Positions 3,349 through 39,842 of a stretch of 64,000 nucleotides of DNA are shown here, one piece after another. Under the pieces are notes generated by a model. The model was given only the letters and a program-made list of their open reading frames with translations. It searched no databases and was not told the origin of the DNA. Every line of letters starts with the position of its first letter. Positions within the stretch are counted from its first letter, which is position 1. Source of the stretch: Escherichia phage vB_EcoM_R5505; sequence record MK373786.1; one strand, 5' to 3'. Made by a program: the position numbers and the translations under genes.

Positions 3349-3684
3349 TTATTCTTCGTCTAGCTCGTCGATAAAGACGTTGATGGCCTCGATAACGGCA
3401 TCATTGATAGCTAATAAAATAAAATCATCGTCAGTACCTTTAGAAGATTCTAAAGCATTGATATATGCTTGGTTGGCGAGTTCCCAAGCCTTTTTAAAAT
3501 AAGGAGCTTCATCATCAGGACAAATATCCCGCACGCCTTCAAAGATACGTTTGGCATAATCTAACACCCATTGTACAGGCATGTTTTGAGAACGTTCGTT
3601 AAACTCTTTAAAGTCCTTAGATTCAAAAAGCTCTTCAGGATAATTATTTCTATTACAAAAAGCTTTACTAAAGTTACGTTTCAT
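3349..3684 (-). CDS. e.7: acidic hypothetical protein, T4 e.7 position
   Basis: 111-aa ORF, ATG start; synteny. Confidence 0.65.
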   Translation of the reverse strand: MKRNFSKAFCNRNNYPEELFESKDFKEFNERSQNMPVQWVLDYAKRIFEGVRDICPDDEAPYFKKAWELANQAYINALESSKGTDDDFILLAINDAVIEAINVFIDELDEE

Positions 3685-3740: not shown

Positions 3741-4004
3741 TTATTTCATATTATTGAAATATTCTTCTGCGATTTCGTCGTTATCATGGTAAACTTTAGA
3801 AGACAGTTTAACATAACTTTCAGCAGTGAACATGTTAATCACAACCTTTACAGTATACCACTGACCGTCTTCATTGCCCATTACCGCATAAGTTTCAAAC
3901 ATCGGATGATCAGGACCGATAACTTTAATATCATTCACTGTACGACCGAAATCTTCTGAAACACATTTCATAAAGAAGTTGAACAGTTCGCCGTAATTAT
4001 CCAT
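3741..4004 (-). CDS. e.8: hypothetical protein, T4 e.8 position
   Basis: ORF track start 4016 is TTG; ATG at 4004 is preceded by strong SD (GGAGAACGAAATG); 87 aa from that start. Confidence 0.6.
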   Translation of the reverse strand: MDNYGELFNFFMKCVSEDFGRTVNDIKVIGPDHPMFETYAVMGNEDGQWYTVKVVINMFTAESYVKLSSKVYHDNDEIAEEYFNNMK

Positions 4005-4044
4005 TTCGTTCTCCAAGTTGTTTTCTGTATCAGTAGTTGATAGT

Positions 4045-4092
4045 TGTATAGTACCATGGAAGAAAAGGGATGTAAACAGTTTTGTGAAAAAA
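4045..4092 (-). promoter_or_regulatory. sigma70-type early promoter for the e.8-to-e transcription unit
   Basis: Minus strand reads TTCACAAAACTGTTTACA-N18-TACTAT; same cassette as the promoters at 8001-8040, 8301-8354, 8669-8721. Confidence 0.5.
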
Positions 4093-4210
4093 TTTTTAAA
4101 AAGTTTTAGGGAATTCTAGGGTCAGGAGGGGCAATTAAAAGATAGGATAATATATTATAAAGGGTAGAAACTAAATGATGCCTAGAGAGGCCCAGAAAGG
4201 CCTAGATACC

Positions 4211-4238
4211 AAAAAGTCCCAACCTTTCGGTTGGGGCT
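4211..4238 (-). terminator. rho-independent terminator after the 157-aa gene
   Basis: Minus-strand hairpin GCCCCAACC-GAAA-GGTTGGGAC followed by UUUUU; sits just 3' of the stop at 4246. Confidence 0.6.
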
Positions 4239-4245
4239 AAGAATG

Positions 4246-4719
4246 TTATTTGATTTGTTTAGCAGACCAAATGCGGTCTTTAATAATTTTTTGGATGTCT
4301 TCAACATACTCAAGAGAGTGAGCATGTGGGTTATCTTTGAAACTATAAGCACGAGCTAACTTTTGACCTTCAGTTTTGATTACTAAAAGCTCTTTAAGGA
4401 TAGCTTCATATTTGGAGATAATTCCTTTAACAATATTTTTTTCTTGTGTAGCTTTAGGATCTGCTTTAGGAGCAGGTTTACCTGAAGCCTTTGCAAAAGC
4501 AGCGCCAGTAGCAACTAAACTTTTCCAGGCCATACTAACTGCATTCCCTGTAAATCCTTCGGCTTTCATATCACGAGCAAATTGGAATCGTGATTCATCG
4601 GAAGCATCTTTATAGGAATATTTACCCGCGGCAATGGCTGCTTTTGCGACAGCTTGAATTTCGGTGCTAGATGCTTCATTTAACACCGCTTCATTTAAAA
4701 ATTGAGCATATGATTTCAT
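4246..4719 (-). CDS. Ala/Lys-rich protein with internal-protein-like N-terminal capsid-targeting motif
   Basis: 157-aa ORF, ATG start; N-terminus MKSYAQFLNEAVLNEA resembles the T4 internal-protein targeting sequence MKTYQEFIAEA and carries two L-x-E sites (prohead protease motif). Confidence 0.7.
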   Translation of the reverse strand: MKSYAQFLNEAVLNEASSTEIQAVAKAAIAAGKYSYKDASDESRFQFARDMKAEGFTGNAVSMAWKSLVATGAAFAKASGKPAPKADPKATQEKNIVKGIISKYEAILKELLVIKTEGQKLARAYSFKDNPHAHSLEYVEDIQKIIKDRIWSAKQIK

Positions 4720-4765
4720 CTTATTTCCTGTTTTAATTCGTGGTTTTAATATACTTATTTATACC

Positions 4766-4792
4766 AAAAAGCCCCAACCTTTCGGTCGGGGC
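4766..4792 (-). terminator. rho-independent terminator at the 3' end of the tRNA/stable-RNA transcription unit
   Basis: Minus-strand hairpin GCCCCGACC-GAAA-GGTTGGGGC followed by UUUUU; near-identical to the terminator at 4211-4238. Confidence 0.6.
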
Positions 4793-4844
4793 TAAGCCTT
4801 GCGGCAACCTTGTCGGGGTTCCACCTGCTAAGGCAAGTGTTTGT

Positions 4845-5002
4845 ACGAAACGCCGGGATTCGAACCCGGTTATTAAGCAGTTGACGCTACTCAATATTTT
4901 TAAAAGGCCATATCTCGACCATATCCGAACGTTCCGTCAAAAACGCTACTCGGCTTACGGCAAAGATATTTCCTCGAATCGATAATTCGGTGCGCCGTTT
5001 CT
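4845..5002 (-). ncRNA. candidate small stable RNA with tRNA-like 3' module (possibly T4 species-RNA analogue)
   Basis: Minus strand has perfect T-arm CCGGG-TTCGAAT-CCCGG followed by 7-nt acceptor-like strand that pairs with GAAACG ~150 nt upstream; no ORF; several strong hairpins at 5004-5104. Confidence 0.3.
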
Positions 5003-5104: not shown

Positions 5105-5455
5105 TTAATATTCTTTTAAAGCATCAATTTGTTCACGGCGTAAACGCCATAAATCAATTGCTTCATAAGCAGATTCAGCATTTCGAATTAGCCGACATTT
5201 ATGTAAAGACTTATGATTTTGATATTGTGTAGATAACGGAATTTTATCTAAAAGGTCTTTACGTTCAAAATATTCGTAACCATCTAAACCAAATGAACGA
5301 TTTTTGAGAAATTGCCAATGACCATATTCGTTTTCGACATAAACATAATCTGCATGCTGATAAAGCAAATTAATTACACGTTCAGAAATAACAGTATCAT
5401 TATGATTAAAATAGAATGTTAAATCATGAACTACTAAATAAACATTACATTTCAT
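5105..5455 (-). CDS. hypothetical protein encoded between tRNA-Arg and the stable-RNA region
   Basis: 116-aa ORF, ATG start with SD (TGAGGAAAATG); no recognisable motif; not GIY-YIG or HNH. Confidence 0.6.
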   Translation of the reverse strand: MKCNVYLVVHDLTFYFNHNDTVISERVINLLYQHADYVYVENEYGHWQFLKNRSFGLDGYEYFERKDLLDKIPLSTQYQNHKSLHKCRLIRNAESAYEAIDLWRLRREQIDALKEY

Positions 5456-5473: not shown

Positions 5474-5549
5474 TGGTCGAGGCAGTAGGGATCGAACCTA
5501 CGACCTAGGACTTAGAAGGTCCTTGCTCTTCCTTCTGAGCTATGCCCCG
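5474..5549 (-). tRNA. tRNA-Arg (anticodon UCU)
   Basis: Manual cloverleaf: acceptor CGGGGCA/TGCCTCG, D-stem GCTC/GAGC, anticodon stem AGGAC/GTCCT with loop CTTCTAA, T-arm GTAGG-TTCGATC-CCTAC, encoded CCA. Confidence 0.85.
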
Positions 5550-5553
5550 TAAT

Positions 5554-5629
5554 TGGGGTGACCGATGGGAGTCGAACCCATGACTACGAGAATCACAATC
5601 TCGAGTTCTACCAACTGAACTACGGCCAC
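5554..5629 (-). tRNA. tRNA-His (anticodon GUG)
   Basis: Cloverleaf: acceptor GTGGCCG/CGGTCAC, D-stem GTTC/GAAC, anticodon stem CGAGA/TCTCG loop TTGTGAT, T-arm ATGGG-TTCGACT-CCCAT, discriminator C, CCA encoded; no encoded G-1. Confidence 0.75.
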
Positions 5630-5743
5630 ATTAATACCTACTCCAACAATCAAGATGTCTTCACACGAAATTAAGAGAAGAGTGATCAGTTCAACCCCTA
5701 TAATCGCGTCAAGTAGATATTAATGTGACAGTTGTCACAAATT

Positions 5744-5818
5744 TGGCGGACGTGATAGGATTCGAACCTATAACCAATCGCTTAACAGGCGATCGCTCTG
5801 CCATTGAGCTACACATCC
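5744..5818 (-). tRNA. tRNA-Asn (anticodon GUU)
   Basis: Cloverleaf: acceptor GGATGTG/CACGTCC, D-stem GCTC/GAGC, anticodon stem ATCGC/GCGAT loop CTGTTAA, T-arm ATAGG-TTCGAAT-CCTAT, CCA encoded. Confidence 0.75.
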
Positions 5819-5822
5819 AAAT

Positions 5823-5909
5823 TGGTGGGGAGTGGTGGAGTCGAACCACCCGAGTCGCAATGACAATGAATTTACAGTCCACACCGCTACCTCTACGGGA
5901 TAACTCCCC
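5823..5909 (-). tRNA. tRNA-Tyr (anticodon GUA), long variable arm
   Basis: Perfect acceptor GGGGAGT/ACTCCCC, T-arm GGTGG-TTCGACT-CCACC, anticodon loop CTGTAAA, ~15-nt variable arm; D-arm pairing imperfect. Confidence 0.6.
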
Positions 5910-5918
5910 AAATTAATT

Positions 5919-5993
5919 TGGTGGCCCTGGGTGGAATTGAACCACCATCTGGCGATTATGAGTCGCTTGCTTGAACCTTCCAGCTACAGGGCC
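5919..5993 (-). tRNA. tRNA with CAU anticodon (Ile2 lysidine type as in T4, or Met)
   Basis: Acceptor GGCCCTG/CAGGGCC, D-stem GCTG/AAGC, anticodon loop CTCATAA, T-arm GGTGG-TTCAATT-CCACC, CCA encoded. Confidence 0.7.
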
Positions 5994-5994
5994 T

Positions 5995-6070
5995 TGGTGC
6001 TGATTGACGGAATCGAACCGCCGACCTTCTCATTACAAGTGAGTTGCTCTACCTACTGAGCTAAATCAGC
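5995..6070 (-). tRNA. tRNA-Thr (anticodon UGU)
   Basis: Acceptor GCTGATT/AATCAGC, D-stem GCTC/GAGC, anticodon loop CTTGTAA, T-arm GGCGG-TTCGATT-CCGTC, CCA encoded. Confidence 0.85.
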
Positions 6071-6075
6071 AAAAC

Positions 6076-6165
6076 TGGCGGAGGCGATAGGATTTGAACC
6101 TATGAGTCGCCGGAGCGACTGCCGGTTTTCAAGACCGGTGCATTAAACCACTCTGCCACGCCTCC
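6076..6165 (-). tRNA. tRNA-Ser (anticodon UGA), long variable arm
   Basis: Acceptor GGAGGCG/CGCCTCC, anticodon stem ACCGG/CCGGT loop CTTGAAA, long variable stem-loop, T-arm ATAGG-TTCAAAT-CCTAT, CCA encoded. Confidence 0.85.
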
Positions 6166-6167
6166 AG

Positions 6168-6241
6168 TCTCCATACAAGGATTTGAACCTTGGACCTCCT
6201 GATCCCAAATCAGGCGCTCTACCAAACTGAGCTACACGGAG
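6168..6241 (-). tRNA. tRNA-Pro (anticodon UGG), CCA not encoded; 2-nt spacer to tRNA-Ser
   Basis: Acceptor CTCCGTG/TATGGAG, D-stem GCTC/GAGC, anticodon stem CCTGA/TCAGG loop TTTGGGA, T-arm CAAGG-TTCAAAT-CCTTG; Pro-Ser dimeric arrangement as in T4. Confidence 0.85.
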
Positions 6242-6251
6242 TAAATTAAAT

Positions 6252-6325
<74 letters not shown>

Positions 6326-6330
6326 AAATT

Positions 6331-6417
6331 TGGTGCGAGAAGTGGGACTCGAACCCACAAGGAAATCATTCCGCAGCATTTTAAGTGCTGTGCCTTTACC
6401 AATTTGACCATTCTCGC
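6331..6417 (-). tRNA. tRNA-Leu (anticodon UAA), long variable arm
   Basis: Acceptor GCGAGAA/TTCTCGC, anticodon stem CAGCA/TGCTG loop CTTAAAA, long variable arm, T-arm GTGGG-TTCGAGT-CCCAC, CCA encoded. Confidence 0.85.
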
Positions 6418-6418
6418 G

Positions 6419-6490
6419 CTGGGAATAAAGGACTCGAACCTTTGCATCTAGCAGTCAAAGTGCTATGCCTTACCAACTTGGCTAATTCCC
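6419..6490 (-). tRNA. tRNA-Gln (anticodon UUG), CCA not encoded; 1-nt spacer to tRNA-Leu
   Basis: Acceptor TGGGAAT/ATTCCCA, D-stem GCC/GGC, anticodon stem TAGCA/TGCTA loop CTTTGAC, T-arm AAAGG-TTCGAGT-CCTTT; Gln-Leu dimeric arrangement as in T4. Confidence 0.85.
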
Positions 6491-6577
6491 AATTATTAAC
6501 AAAGGCTCTCAAACAAGAACCCTTGATGATAGAGGGTATTAATCAGTGCGGTATGAGTTAATAATAACAAATAATTC

Positions 6578-7093
6578 TTAAAGCAAATTAAACATTTTAA
6601 CGGTCGGCAAAACAATTTCTTCTTCTATATAAGAGTATTTAACACTCTCAACTACACGCAAAAAATCATAATCATAATACTCAGAAGCATTACCTAAAAT
6701 ATTAATAAGTCCTTCAAGCACTTTATTACCATTCACAAAGAATAAGTCAAATACGCGTTCTTCGTCTTCTTCGGATTTATTACCAAGGTCAACTTCTATA
6801 TCAAAGACCTTTTTAATGAATTCTGGATAAAGTTGTTCTGAGAACAGTCCTTCAACCAAGTATTCATAAATAAAAAGCGATTGCTCGCTGAACAAGCCAT
6901 TACCACAATAACGTTCAGCTTTAGTACTAGAATGTCTACTTTTAAACTTCTTTAAAAGATATTGAAATTGTAAGATTTCATGCTCTTCTACGCCAAACAG
7001 TGTTTTAGTTTTATAGTTGTCACCATCATTTTCCCAGGTAGTGACATCAATTACGTAACCCTGTGGAATTGTAGTACCTAAACAAATATTCAT
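6578..7093 (-). CDS. hypothetical protein, last gene of a four-gene early operon in the tRNA-ipI variable region
   Basis: 171-aa ORF, ATG start, 4-nt overlap with upstream gene; acidic; no motif recognised. Confidence 0.65.
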   Translation of the reverse strand: MNICLGTTIPQGYVIDVTTWENDGDNYKTKTLFGVEEHEILQFQYLLKKFKSRHSSTKAERYCGNGLFSEQSLFIYEYLVEGLFSEQLYPEFIKKVFDIEVDLGNKSEEDEERVFDLFFVNGNKVLEGLINILGNASEYYDYDFLRVVESVKYSYIEEEIVLPTVKMFNLL

Positions 7094-7385: not shown

Positions 7386-7796
7386 TCAGCCTCTATCAAC
7401 GATAGCATGAGTATGGGCATTTACGATTTGCCACCAGTCGAAACGATTGGAACCATAATCTGGTTTATTTTCATTTTCTTTAATGATATCACGCAGTTTA
7501 TCTTCTGTTTCAGCATACGCAATTAAATCATCATATCCGCCACAAGGATAATAATTATCACCTGCGAATAAAAGAAAATTTACCTTAGATGGATTTACGT
7601 AATAATGGTCTTTAGGATATTTAGTTCCTCTCCAATCAGTTACTTCAACATAACGGTAAGAAAATCCATTTTTACTTTCAATCCAACTCCACGCTTCAAA
7701 AGGAGTATTAAAAACTTTATCAGGTATTAAATTACCTTCAAAATGAGAAGGATTTGCATAATCCCCGGCATAAACATAATATTCGTTAATACTCAT
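7386..7796 (-). CDS. hypothetical protein, Tyr/Trp-rich (variable-region operon)
   Basis: 136-aa ORF, ATG start immediately after upstream stop; no motif recognised. Confidence 0.65.
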   Translation of the reverse strand: MSINEYYVYAGDYANPSHFEGNLIPDKVFNTPFEAWSWIESKNGFSYRYVEVTDWRGTKYPKDHYYVNPSKVNFLLFAGDNYYPCGGYDDLIAYAETEDKLRDIIKENENKPDYGSNRFDWWQIVNAHTHAIVDRG

Positions 7797-8040: not shown

Positions 8041-8274
8041 TTATTTTTTACGAAAAATTGATTTATATTTATCAGCCCATTTCTCGATGACTTTTTCTGG
8101 TCCATAGATAACAAAATAATCACCAAACTCTTCACCACCGAGTTGACCGAAATTATCTAATGCATCACGAAGAACTCCATGAGGCATTTCGCCCATTTTA
8201 TCTTTCTTACCAATGTAAATAAACTCAACTTTTACATCAGCAGCTTCAGCAATAAATTCTTGATACGTTTTCAT
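8041..8274 (-). CDS. internal-protein-like small protein with canonical capsid targeting sequence
   Basis: ORF track start 8292 is GTG; ATG at 8274 with SD GGAGAATAAAATG gives 77 aa beginning MKTYQEFIAEA (matches T4 IPIII/IPII targeting motif, I-x-E cleavage site). Confidence 0.75.
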   Translation of the reverse strand: MKTYQEFIAEAADVKVEFIYIGKKDKMGEMPHGVLRDALDNFGQLGGEEFGDYFVIYGPEKVIEKWADKYKSIFRKK

Positions 8275-8300
8275 TTTATTCTCCAATTTCACATTTGTTT

Positions 8301-8354
8301 TGATAGGGTAATAGTATCACTACTAAAACCCCGTGTAAACAACTTTGTGAAATT
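8301..8354 (-). promoter_or_regulatory. early promoter cassette upstream of the internal-protein-like gene
   Basis: Minus strand: AATTTCACAAAGTTGTTTAC-N18-TACTAT; 20-mer GTAAACAACTTTGTGAAATT repeated at 8702-8721. Confidence 0.5.
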
Positions 8355-8359
8355 GTTTA

Positions 8360-8647
8360 TTACAAAAGATTTTTAGCAATAATCTTGAGATGTGCTGCAG
8401 AAATGTGTTTAGCTTTAAACAACGCAGTTTCTTCGGCAGGAGAGATAACGATTGTAGCACCATCCTTTTTAGCAGACCACCCATCACCTAGGTAAACAGT
8501 ACCTTTGATTTCTTCGCCATCAACCAGACTAATCATTGGTTTACCTTCTCGTCCTTTATTTGCTTTAATAACTTCAGAAGTAAGAGTAGCTTCGGTAATG
8601 GTAGAAACCGGGGTAGTTGTAGAAGTAAATTCTTTAAATGTTTTCAT
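8360..8647 (-). CDS. ipI: internal protein I (IPI), injected anti-restriction protein
   Basis: 95-aa ORF MKTFKEFTSTTTPVSTITEATLTSEVIKANKGREGKPMISLVDGEEIKG... recognised as T4 IPI; adjacent to 57B as in T4. Confidence 0.9.
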   Translation of the reverse strand: MKTFKEFTSTTTPVSTITEATLTSEVIKANKGREGKPMISLVDGEEIKGTVYLGDGWSAKKDGATIVISPAEETALFKAKHISAAHLKIIAKNLL

Positions 8648-27886: not shown

Positions 27887-29588
<1,702 letters not shown>

Positions 29589-37690: not shown

Positions 37691-37691
<1 letters not shown>

Positions 37692-37939
37692 TGGAAGGTT
37701 TAATTGAAGCTATTAAATCAAACGACCTCGTAGCCGCTCGTAAATTATTTGCTGAAGCCATGGCTGCAAGAACGATTGATTTAATTAAAGAAGAAAAAAT
37801 CGCTATCGCTCGTAATTTCTTAATCGAAGGTGAAGAACCTGATGACGAGGATGATGACGAAGACGAGGATGATGAAGATAGCGATGATAAAGACGACAAA
37901 AAAGACGAAGACTCTGACGAAGACGAGGATGATGAATAA
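37691..37939 (+). CDS. 67: prohead core protein gp67 with poly-acidic C-terminal tail
   Basis: 82-aa ORF; C-terminal 40 residues almost entirely D/E; synteny. Confidence 0.85.
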
Positions 37940-38364
37940 TGCTTCTGATCCCTGAAACTCATGAATTAGTTCTCGAGAATGTCGAAGCACTTATTCCTGA
38001 AGCACAGGGTCGCTTTGACGAATTGTCTTCTGCTTTAAATAAAGACGATATAAATACAATTGTCGAGAATATGCTTGATGATGAAACTGATTTAGCGGTT
38101 GCATTAGCTTCTATTAATGAAAATATGCCGTTAAATGAATTTATCGTTAAACATGTTTCTGCCCGTGGTGAAATTACTCGCACTAAAGATCGCAAAACCC
38201 GCGAACGTAATGCATTTCAAACTACCGGGTTGTCTAAAGCAAAACGTAGACAAATTGCTCGTAAAGCTACCAAAACGAAGATTGCCAATCCAGCAGGTCA
38301 ATCTCGTGCTCAGCGTAAGCGTAAAAAAGCTCTTAAACGCCGTAAAGCATTAGGATTAAGCTAA
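37939..38364 (+). CDS. 68: prohead core protein gp68
   Basis: 141-aa ORF; basic C-terminus; synteny. Confidence 0.85.
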
Positions 38365-39002
38365 TGAATGAACCCCAATTACTAATTGAAACTTGGGGTC
38401 AACCTGGCGAAATTATTGATGGCGTACCAATGCTTGAATCTCATGATGGAAAAGACTTAGGTTTAAAACCTGGTTTATACATCGAAGGAATATTCATGCA
38501 AGCGGAAGTCGTCAATAGAAATAAACGTCTTTATCCAAAACGTATATTAGAAAAAGCGGTAAAAGACTATATTAATGAGCAAGTTTTAACTAAACAAGCT
38601 CTCGGAGAATTAAATCATCCTCCACGCGCTAATGTTGACCCAATGCAAGCCGCTATCATTATAGAAGATATGTGGTGGAAAGGAAATGACGTATACGGAC
38701 GAGCTCGTGTTATTGAAGGTGACCATGGTCCTGGAGATAAATTAGCAGCTAATATTCGTGCCGGATGGATTCCAGGAGTTTCTTCTCGTGGATTAGGTTC
38801 ATTGACTGACACAAATAAAGGTTATCGTATCGTAAACGAAGGATTCAAATTAACTGTAGGTGTTGATGCAGTATGGGGTCCAAGTGCTCCAGATGCATGG
38901 GTAACTCCTAAGGAAATTACCGAATCACAGACGGCGGAAGCCGATACAAGTGCCGATGACGCCTATATGGCTCTCGCAGAGGCCATGAAAAAAGCGTTAT
39001 AA
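38364..39002 (+). CDS. 21: prohead core protease gp21
   Basis: 212-aa ORF; size and synteny as T4 gp21. Confidence 0.9.
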   Translation: MNEPQLLIETWGQPGEIIDGVPMLESHDGKDLGLKPGLYIEGIFMQAEVVNRNKRLYPKRILEKAVKDYINEQVLTKQALGELNHPPRANVDPMQAAIIIEDMWWKGNDVYGRARVIEGDHGPGDKLAANIRAGWIPGVSSRGLGSLTDTNKGYRIVNEGFKLTVGVDAVWGPSAPDAWVTPKEITESQTAEADTSADDAYMALAEAMKKAL

Positions 39003-39032: not shown

Positions 39033-39842
39033 ATGCTTAAAGAACAACTGATTGCCGAAGCGCAGAAAATTGATGCTTCCGTTGCTCTTGATAGTATTTT
39101 CGAATCAGTTAATATTTCTCCGGAAGCAAAAGAAACTTTCGGCACTGTATTCGAAGCTACCGTCAAGCAGCACGCCGTTAAATTAGCTGAATCTCATATC
39201 GCTAAAATTGCTGAAAAAGCAGAAGAAGAAGTAGAAAAAAATAAAGAAGAAGCAGAAGAAAAAGCTGAGAAGAAAATCGCTGAGCAAGCTTCTAAATTCC
39301 TTGACCATCTTGCAAAAGAATGGCTCACTGAAAATAAATTAGCAGTAGATAAAGGCATCAAAGCCGAACTGTTTGAATCCATGCTTGGTGGATTGAAAGA
39401 GCTCTTCGTTGAACACAACGTTGTTGTTCCAGAAGAATCAGTTGATGTTGTAGCTGAAATGGAAGAAGAACTGCAAGAACATAAAGAAGAATCAGCTCGT
39501 CTGTTCGAAGAACTCAATAAGCGTGACGCATATATCAATTATGTGCAGCGTGAAGTGGCATTGAGCGAAAGTACTAAAGATCTGACTGAGTCTCAAAAAG
39601 AAAAAGTCTCTGCTCTGGTCGAAGGTATGGATTATTCAGATGCATTCTCAAGTAAATTGAGTGCAATCGTAGAAATGGTGAAGAAATCTAATAAAGATGA
39701 AAGCACTATTACTGAGAGTATAAATACTCCTGATACTGAAGCAGCCGGACTGAATTTCGTCACTGAAGCTGTAGAAGATAAATCTGCACAAGGTGCAGAA
39801 GATATTGTAAGTGTATATGCGAAAGTCGCATCTCGTTTCTAA
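39033..39842 (+). CDS. 22: prohead scaffold protein gp22
   Basis: 269-aa ORF, Glu/Lys/Ala-rich coiled coil; size and synteny. Confidence 0.9.
   Translation: MLKEQLIAEAQKIDASVALDSIFESVNISPEAKETFGTVFEATVKQHAVKLAESHIAKIAEKAEEEVEKNKEEAEEKAEKKIAEQASKFLDHLAKEWLTENKLAVDKGIKAELFESMLGGLKELFVEHNVVVPEESVDVVAEMEEELQEHKEESARLFEELNKRDAYINYVQREVALSESTKDLTESQKEKVSALVEGMDYSDAFSSKLSAIVEMVKKSNKDESTITESINTPDTEAAGLNFVTEAVEDKSAQGAEDIVSVYAKVASRF

Follow-up and report, generated by a model that had tools for sequence, protein, structure and literature searches.

A gene between e.8 and the tRNA cluster of a Tequatrovirus encodes a candidate capsid-targeted internal protein

A stretch of 64,000 nucleotides from Escherichia phage vB_EcoM_R5505 (sequence record MK373786.1), hereafter the window, carries next to its tRNA cluster a small gene that is likely to encode an internal protein (Ip) of the phage head. 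The gene is a minus-strand open reading frame (ORF) at positions 4246-4719, with an ATG start, 157 codons and a stop codon at 4246-4248, and is preceded on the same strand, 4 nt before the ATG, by a Shine-Dalgarno-like AGGAAA read from the sequence (4724-4729). Its product opens MKSYAQFLNEAVLNEASSTE (MKSYAQFLNEAVLNEA). The predicted precursor of 157 residues has a mass of 17.2 kDa and an isoelectric point (pI) of 9.46, being basic like most Ips, and contains 17.2% Ala and 13.4% Lys; the preliminary description of this DNA, which reported an Ala/Lys-rich product here, was correct in coordinates, sequence and composition. The protein is a full-length member of phrog_2280 (residues 1-157, E = 3.1e-60), a family of unknown function. 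An 801-bp stretch with the ORF is 99.9% identical to Escherichia phage teqdroes, a Tequatrovirus like the phage of the window, in which a protein 100% identical to the ORF product (QHR64641) is annotated as 'hypothetical protein'. The same name is used throughout the databases, save for one UniRef entry in which the homologue of Klebsiella phage KPKp is called 'Internal head protein'.

The local gene order, all on the minus strand, is nudE, e.2 to e.8, the 157-codon ORF, an rnaC homologue and ten tRNA genes, with e.8 at 3741-4016 (phrog_2678), the rnaC homologue at about 4800-4940 and the tRNA genes at 5477-6491. Beyond the tRNAs come some small ORFs and then, on the minus strand at 8041-8647, this phage's canonical ipI locus, which holds two recognised internal-protein genes, one at 8041-8274 (MKTYQEFIAEA..., phrog_8111) and the other at 8360-8647 (IPI, Pfam IPI_T4). 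In T4, ipII and ipIII are found in the interval from denV to e, and ipI has its place beside 57B; the ORF is at neither site, so that the location between e.8 and the tRNA cluster is indeed non-canonical. Ips are customarily encoded at one of the two described Ip loci, and this gene lies between e.8 and the rnaC/tRNA block. No internal-protein gene at this position was described in the literature searched, nor did any paper there name RB32ORF133c (the orthologue in phage RB32), the accession numbers or the leader string. Petrov et al. 2010 did not mention internal proteins. Silas et al. 2025 referred to 'the two Ip loci' and tested ip1-10, the phrog_2280-type family not being among them (PMC12373910), and the leader string MKSY is absent from the supplementary files of that work.

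The first ten codons (4690-4719, minus strand) specify MKSYAQFLNE, a putative capsid targeting sequence (CTS) with Y4, F7, L8 and E10 and with the first predicted cut of the prohead protease gp21 after E10. They are followed by a second L-x-E site, AVLNE, in codons 11-15 (4675-4689, minus strand), whose E15 is invariant in an alignment of eight sequences and abuts the conserved domain. The two L-x-E sites announced beforehand are thus L-N-E at residues 8-10 and 13-15, forming the cleavage-type junctions L8-N9-E10/A11 and L13-N14-E15/A16 with a small residue after each Glu; a third [LI]xE, LKE at residues 108-110, falls within a predicted helix. For IPIII of T4, the first 10 residues alone suffice for incorporation into the head, and suppressor mutagenesis assigned targeting mainly to residues 4 and 7 and processing to residues 8 and 10, gp21 cutting after Glu in L/I-x-E (review of Black's work, PMC9026906). 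The 157-residue protein keeps all four mapped positions: the targeting pair Y4 and F7 and the processing pair L8 and E10. Compared with MKTYQEFIAEA, its M-K-S-Y-A-Q-F-L-N-E-A is identical at 6 of 11 positions, and the S/T, Q/E and L/I changes are conservative. The leaders compared were MKTYQEFIAE for IPII and IPIII, MKTYQEFITE for Ip4, MKTYQEFISE for Ip9, MKTFKEFINE for Ip7 and MKTFKEFTSTTTPVSTITE for IPI, all cut before A, and MKTFKEFATKTTITE for Ip5, cut before S; in the 157-residue protein MKSYAQFLNE is followed by AVLNE and then by A.

When the 559 ATG-started candidate ORFs of the window were scored with BLOSUM62 against MKTYQEFIAEA, this ORF ranked second with a score of 34 (mean -2.1, standard deviation 7.6), between a true Ip above it (55) and the IPI orthologue below it (29), which bears out the CTS-like N-terminus of the preliminary description. 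A relaxed leader pattern, M..[YF]..F[LIVMAT].[ED], allowing for the deletion of one residue, was then run in all frames over the window and ten related loci, a total of 1,675 candidate ORFs; the loci overlap in content, so that the matches are not independent trials. It matched 28 ORFs: 15 recognised Ips or orthologues, eight members of the phrog_2280-type family and five small unannotated ORFs, three of them adjoining family members and two near 57A/57B. Among these candidates, no match hit a gene known to do something else, and none was in a wrong frame. Despite the overlap between loci, the specificity of the leader pattern is clear from these sequences.

The leader is also retained in homologues that are only approximately 30-35% identical (the most distant phage ones), over at least six groups of T4-like phages. 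The variants found were MKTYNEFLNE, MKSYAEFLTE, MKTYNEFLMTE, MLKFNEFLAE, MINFSDFLNE and MISFNEFVDGNLITE, together with MLEYSEFLKE..CE in fHe-Yen9-01, MKFKEFLAE in Klebsiella phages and MKSFSSFLNE in Serratia and Cronobacter phages; their sources are Mosigvirus, phages of Klebsiella, Yersinia, Serratia and Cronobacter, and metagenome-derived proteins. The homologues carry [YF]4 and F7, and the Glu directly before the conserved domain is invariant in the alignment. Conservation of the leader and of this Glu in such divergent proteins is what one would expect if selection acted on the leader as a signal for targeting and cleavage. A co-variation of the family leader with the other Ip leaders of the same phage was also considered and was rejected, as fHe-Yen9-01 has annotated Ips with MKTYNEFIFE and MKSYNEFITE versus MLEYSEFLKE and MLQYNEFLKE in the family.

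An AlphaFold2 model built from the eight-sequence alignment (mean predicted local distance difference test, pLDDT, of 76.8) was all-helical, with two domains joined by a flexible linker. The leader was poorly ordered (pLDDT of about 52); modelled with low confidence and little structure, it is plausibly accessible. Residues 16-71 (4507-4674, minus strand) form a conserved N-domain of three predicted helices (18-30, 41-53 and 59-71) with invariant GKYSY, E42, R44, F47, D50, GF and KS. A Lys/Pro/Ala-rich flexible linker modelled with low confidence, GAAFAKASGKPAPKAD, follows at residues 72-87 (4459-4506, minus strand), and residues 88-157 (4249-4458, minus strand) are predicted to form a helical-hairpin C-domain (helices 88-124 and 131-154). 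The C-terminal half exists in two unrelated versions, one ending ...IKDRIWSAKQIK and the other, in Klebsiella, Serratia and Yersinia phages, ...VGDVGRHYKKL, the N-domain being the conserved part. Sequence searches with the 157-residue protein in Pfam, NCBIfam and PDB gave no match, and fold searches with the model returned self-hits or generic hairpins only.

Several database alleles of this gene are shortened. A T7 tract on the plus strand (A7 in the gene) at 4436-4442 of the window, codons 93-95 approximately, is the frameshift point of P0006 (SfPhi01, 111 residues), P0008 (93 residues) and P0009 (108 residues), in which only the N-domain and linker are retained; P0026 (97 residues) appears to be shortened in the same region. 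These frameshifts may be sequencing errors or real slippage. In the allele of Klebsiella phage KpV477 (locus L006, 3495-3731) there is an in-frame TAA at codon 79 where P0011 reads Lys, and the deposited annotation, kpv477_138, is the 78-codon N-terminal part. P0014 (94 residues, from a Logan contig of 2.9 kb) is a chimera of a part like the 136-residue ORF at 7386-7796 of the window (trna.3 position) and the last 32 residues of the family, and may have arisen by recombination or as an artefact of assembly.

The gene is flanked by two copies of a 36-nt direct repeat, each with a terminator hairpin, all on the minus strand. The upstream copy (4761-4796) has a hairpin at 4793-4770 (10 pairs, GAAA loop) with a T-run and ends the rnaC/tRNA unit; the downstream copy (4206-4241) has its hairpin at 4235-4218 and ends the monocistronic unit. 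Both hairpins are trailed by TTTTTGGTAT and the copies differ by two mismatches (34 of 36 nt identical), in keeping with the two near-identical terminators noticed at the outset; the annotators of RB32 had described RB32ORF133c as 'flanked by 34 bp imperfect direct repeat'. A perfect TATAAATA box, the T4 late-promoter consensus, lies at 4756-4763 (minus strand), beginning within the end of the upstream repeat and 36 nt before the ATG. At the corresponding place the downstream copy and the T4 copy have TATCTAGG/TATCTAAG. The window contains 24 such boxes versus 9.6 ± 3.2 expected by chance. The layout of terminator, TATAAATA, about 30 nt and ATG is also found in KpV477 and in Yersinia phage fD1, and a terminator plus TATAAATA stands ahead of two-gene units in Serratia phage Muldoon and Yersinia phage fHe-Yen9-01. 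A sigma-70-like promoter (TTTACA, 17 nt, TG-TACTAT) at 4048-4076 on the minus strand, conserved in sequence in T4, lies ahead of e.8 and starts the next unit. From its sequence the ORF looks like a self-contained one-gene late unit between the tRNA/rnaC unit and the e.8-to-nudE unit. As a separate observation on the repeats, the two terminator copies of Mosigvirus ATK48 (locus L007, 2927-2972 and approximately 3470-3510) share a lineage-specific stem variant, CCCCTTCC...GGTTGGGG, unlike the Tequatrovirus stems CCCCGACC/CCCCAACC, which points to concerted evolution of the pair inside each genome.

In T4, rnaC comes immediately after e.8, with a single terminator copy; in the alignment, T4 lacks the 555 bases that separate the copies in the window, and the breakpoint falls inside the repeat. 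T2 and T6 have the same single copy followed by the downstream-type flank, and no trace of the 157-residue protein was found by tblastn in the fetched regions of T2, T4 and T6. Megablast with the 801-bp region matched 675 phage records, of which 463 cover at least 80%; judged by these matches, about two in three relatives that have such a region carry the gene. At least 80% of the protein is held by 469 phage records at E <= 1e-3, and tblastn found the family in 511 sequenced phage records, many of them isolates characterised for therapeutic or biocontrol use. Word-indexed and full HMMER profile searches revealed few homologues, some very divergent, with profile matches down to E = 3.6e-4. The same position, after the tRNA/rnaC block and before the e.x genes, is occupied in Mosigvirus ATK48 and Jiaodavirus KpV477, and the corresponding region holds a homologue in Muldoon (Muldoonvirus) and fHe-Yen9-01 (Tegunavirus); further homologues occur in Enterobacter, Erwinia, Raoultella, Kosakonia and Cronobacter phages.

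The GC content of the gene (37.3% versus 36.0% for the window) is ordinary, and its ratios of nonsynonymous to synonymous substitution (dN/dS) lie at 0.02-0.11, where dS reaches about 2 in the comparison with the Mosigvirus orthologue, indicating strong purifying selection. The flanking terminators had been read as consistent with a separately acquired cassette, for which there is no support: gene order, GC content and dN/dS speak against a recent acquisition of the terminator-flanked gene, and T2, T4 and T6 have a single terminator copy at the site of the supposed cassette. The gene is thus probably not a recently acquired cassette. Because gene order is shared, GC is ordinary, dN/dS is low and T2, T4 and T6 keep a single terminator, it is more economical to suppose an old resident gene, lost from the lineages of T2, T4 and T6 by recombination between the terminator repeats, although Tequatrovirus taken alone would formally also allow the opposite polarity, a gain.

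The machinery that a CTS would engage is encoded in the window. The prohead protease gp21, expected to cut the leader, is at 38364-39002 on the plus strand (Pfam Peptidase_S77, E = 1.5e-111), the scaffolding core protein gp22 is at 39033-39842 on the plus strand (Pfam T4_CASP, E = 5.2e-90), gp67 is at 37691-37939 (Pfam GP67), and gp68 is encoded as well. CTS-bearing proteins are taken up into the prohead core, of which gp22 is part (PMC9026906). With respect to the virion, the product of g140 of fD1, also a Tequatrovirus, is identical to the window protein at 156 of 157 residues, and this Gp140 was listed as particle-associated after liquid chromatography-tandem mass spectrometry of purified virions. 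This shows that the fD1 orthologue is made and co-purifies with particles. The particle-associated label was given to 113 of 277 proteins (137 with a looser threshold), DenV, lysozyme and NudE being on the same list; as it includes soluble non-structural proteins, the detection carries modest weight and supports a virion location weakly.

Taken together, the gene likely encodes an internal protein with a CTS that has had no name so far, and its position would be a third Ip locus. By its leader the product would be an Ip, with each of the defining features that can be read from a sequence, and it is not homologous to the named Ip families compared. The proposal of a protein packaged into the head, processed and injected is supported by the leader positions and their conservation, the late-promoter box, the presence of gp21 and gp22 and the fD1 listing; the part that concerned an acquired cassette is not supported. 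According to the proposed scheme, late transcription would start at the gene's own TATAAATA promoter and cover this gene alone, with flanking terminators shutting it off from its neighbours, and the 17-kDa precursor would be led by the CTS MKSYAQFLNE into the scaffolding core of the assembling prohead. There gp21 would cut after Glu10 and/or Glu15, at L-N-E then A, with a predicted mature N-terminus of AVLNEASSTEIQAVAK after the E10 cut or ASSTEIQ... after the E15 cut. The basic mature protein (approximately 15.5 kDa, pI about 9.6) would remain inside the head with the DNA, be ejected with it at the next infection and act before any phage gene is expressed. We infer in this scheme the CTS-dependent packaging, the cleavage positions, the ejection into the host and the target alike.

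Internal proteins are a diverse set that share only the CTS (PMC3012670). BLASTP against IPII, IPIII and Ip4 gave nothing beyond chance outside the leader; the homology to ipII and ipIII that had been put forward as a check is thus absent past the leader, the usual situation for internal proteins. A kinship with Ip4 from the equal length of 157 residues was discarded as a coincidence, there being no similarity beyond the leader, and Ip5, Ip7 and Ip9 were compared by leaders only. The protein resembles IPII and IPIII in the leader M-K-[ST]-Y-x-[EQ]-F-[IL]-x-E followed by A, with the mapped residues 4, 7, 8 and 10, and in being small, basic, non-essential and encoded in a phage with the gp21 protease and the gp22 scaffold. 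It differs from them in a dissimilar mature part, in L instead of I at position 8 with a duplicated L-N-E site, and in its locus, which follows rnaC/tRNA and precedes e.8 instead of falling between denV and e; moreover, IPII and IPIII are hypervariable, whereas the 157-residue family is conserved across at least six groups of T4-like phages. Among the Ips compared, the nearest leader is that of Ip7 (T2, RB32, Mosigvirus; MKTFKEFINEA), with F-[IL]-N-E-A in common, in a protein also small and basic (pI 9.56); Ip7 is, however, encoded at the ipI locus and was among the ip4-10 tested by Silas et al. IPI (Ip1, Pfam IPI_T4, a GmrSD inhibitor) would share packaging by an N-terminal propeptide, an L/I-x-E cut, injection and action before expression, as proposed for the 157-residue protein, but it has a 19-residue leader and a compact alpha/beta fold, unlike the all-helical two-domain model, which has no Pfam match. 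The PHROGs of recognised Ips (phrog_8111, phrog_4363 and phrog_2667) are separate from phrog_2280, which has no functional label.

Several points weigh against the interpretation as a packaged internal protein. Processing and ejection are inferred from sequence, and neither fold nor sequence similarity gives a clue to the target of the mature protein. The family has F-L-x-E where most named Ips have F-I-x-E, and some homologues begin with ML or MI, not MK. As TATAAATA is expected by chance about 10 times in a 64-kb window, the single box is suggestive and not a proof, and the Mosigvirus orthologue has AATAAATA in its place. The fD1 list also labels the valyl-tRNA synthetase modifier along with DenV, lysozyme and NudE, approximately one-third of the neighbouring genes being labelled. 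Finally, classical Ips are hypervariable, while strong purifying selection keeps this family similar from genus to genus, a sign that its role may differ somewhat from theirs.

Some of these points would suit a late cytoplasmic protein, an assembly helper or one with another late function, that is not packaged, its CTS likeness having another cause and its detection in fD1 being carry-over. A list of 113-137 out of 277 proteins that includes clearly soluble enzymes leaves room for such carry-over, and the family is conserved rather than hypervariable. Such a protein would not explain why the leader pattern matched no known non-Ip gene among the 1,675 candidates, why the leader persists in homologues of which nearly all the rest has diverged, with a Glu-small-residue junction before the conserved domain in every case, or why adjoining genes in two genera bear the same leader, and we hold this alternative to be rather unlikely.

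It is improbable, too, that the product is a prohead-core accessory like gp67 and gp68, targeted to the scaffold and cut by gp21 in the service of assembly, and largely expelled or degraded rather than acting as an effector. An all-helical model with a long hairpin belongs to the same broad type as core and scaffold proteins, a third [LI]xE is present at residues 108-110, and conservation across genera suits a structural role. However, T2, T4 and T6 build normal heads without the gene, the shortened or frameshifted alleles common in databases mark it as dispensable, peptides were found in mature fD1 particles, and the internal LKE sits inside a confidently modelled helix. That the ORF is non-functional, a chance frame or a decaying remnant between two terminators, as its 'hypothetical' annotation, its absence from the annotations of Kha5h and ATK48 and several broken alleles might imply, is refuted almost beyond doubt by the 469 phage records, the dN/dS of 0.02-0.11 with dS to about 2, the profile homologues to E = 3.6e-4 and the mass-spectrometry detection.

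Returning to the packaged internal protein, its possible function can be approached by analogy with the Ips of T4. IPIII is required for infection of ECOR17 and acts in the cytoplasm (bioRxiv 10.1101/2022.04.14.488369), and every one of Ip1, Ip2 and Ip3 has been shown to inhibit a GmrSD type IV restriction enzyme of its own (Silas et al. 2025, PMC12373910). By this analogy the most likely target would be a host nuclease-type defence, although unlike Ip2 and Ip3, with their known GmrSD targets (PMC12373910), the 157-residue protein has no known one; DNA-associated protection would be an alternative role, given the lysine-rich linker. Provided that the protein is packaged, an anti-defence function is conceivable, with chances somewhat short of even, and conservation across genera hints at a target broader than strain-specific GmrSD variants. 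More tentatively, the post-tRNA position might be a third Ip locus of the Tevenvirinae, its main occupant being an injected protein built of modules, the N-domain conserved and the C-domain exchangeable, that neutralises a widespread host factor or non-GmrSD defence or protects the entering DNA; such a locus would have gone unnoticed because T2, T4 and T6 are without the gene.

As the three T4 internal proteins are all specific inhibitors of type IV restriction enzymes (PMC12373910), a conserved unnamed family at a third position would, if the interpretation is true, be a candidate anti-defence effector. It would also explain how classical biochemistry missed the protein, the gene being absent from T2, T4 and T6 alike. 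The conserved N-domain with two alternative C-domains would be a natural handle for finding the target, and the short leader may serve as an alternative targeting tag for T4 head-packaging vectors.

Leader-bearing genes were also found in tandem. In Muldoon and fHe-Yen9-01, one terminator-plus-TATAAATA unit stands ahead of two genes, of which the family gene comes second, and the first gene bears a leader as well (MKSFTEFLTE and MLQYNEFLKE, respectively), an arrangement like that of the classical ipI locus. A third leader-bearing ORF, gp156 (MKTYIEFINE), lies just upstream of the two-gene unit of fHe-Yen9-01. These tandem genes are unannotated: Muldoon_129 (locus L010, 2286-2504), fHe-Yen9-01 gp154 (L011, 1922-2491) and gp156 (L012, 25644-25802). 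By eye, gp154 consists of a different N-part joined to a C-part like that of the window protein, a makeup that suggests domain shuffling.

Other Ip-like genes were noticed in passing. In fHe-Yen9-01, the small 'hypothetical' ORFs gp168 (L012, 30056-30292) and gp164 (28819-29037) have the canonical leaders MKTYVEFLSEA and MKSYQEFITES, one in the interval from gene 1 to 57A and the other next to 57B (annotated as RNA ligase), on its tRNA side; Ip-like genes seem to be under-annotated in this phage. In the window, the first gene of the ipI locus appears in the mechanical ORF list as 8041-8292, with a GTG start and 83 residues beginning MKLENK-MKTYQEFIAEA, while a start at the ATG at 8274 yields 77 residues with the canonical leader; the 77-residue product is acidic (pI 5.8), unlike most Ips.

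The tRNA cluster itself is adjoined by two AT-rich ORFs, one on each side, at 5105-5455 (GC 28.5%) and 6578-7093 (GC 31.8%), where T4 has no ORF. The first is like EcT2_00138 of T2 by position and length alone, and the second is like an ORF of RB32 (annotated as similar to RB69ORF151c) by length alone. The gene content around the tRNAs also differs from that of teqdroes, which has a homing endonuclease there.

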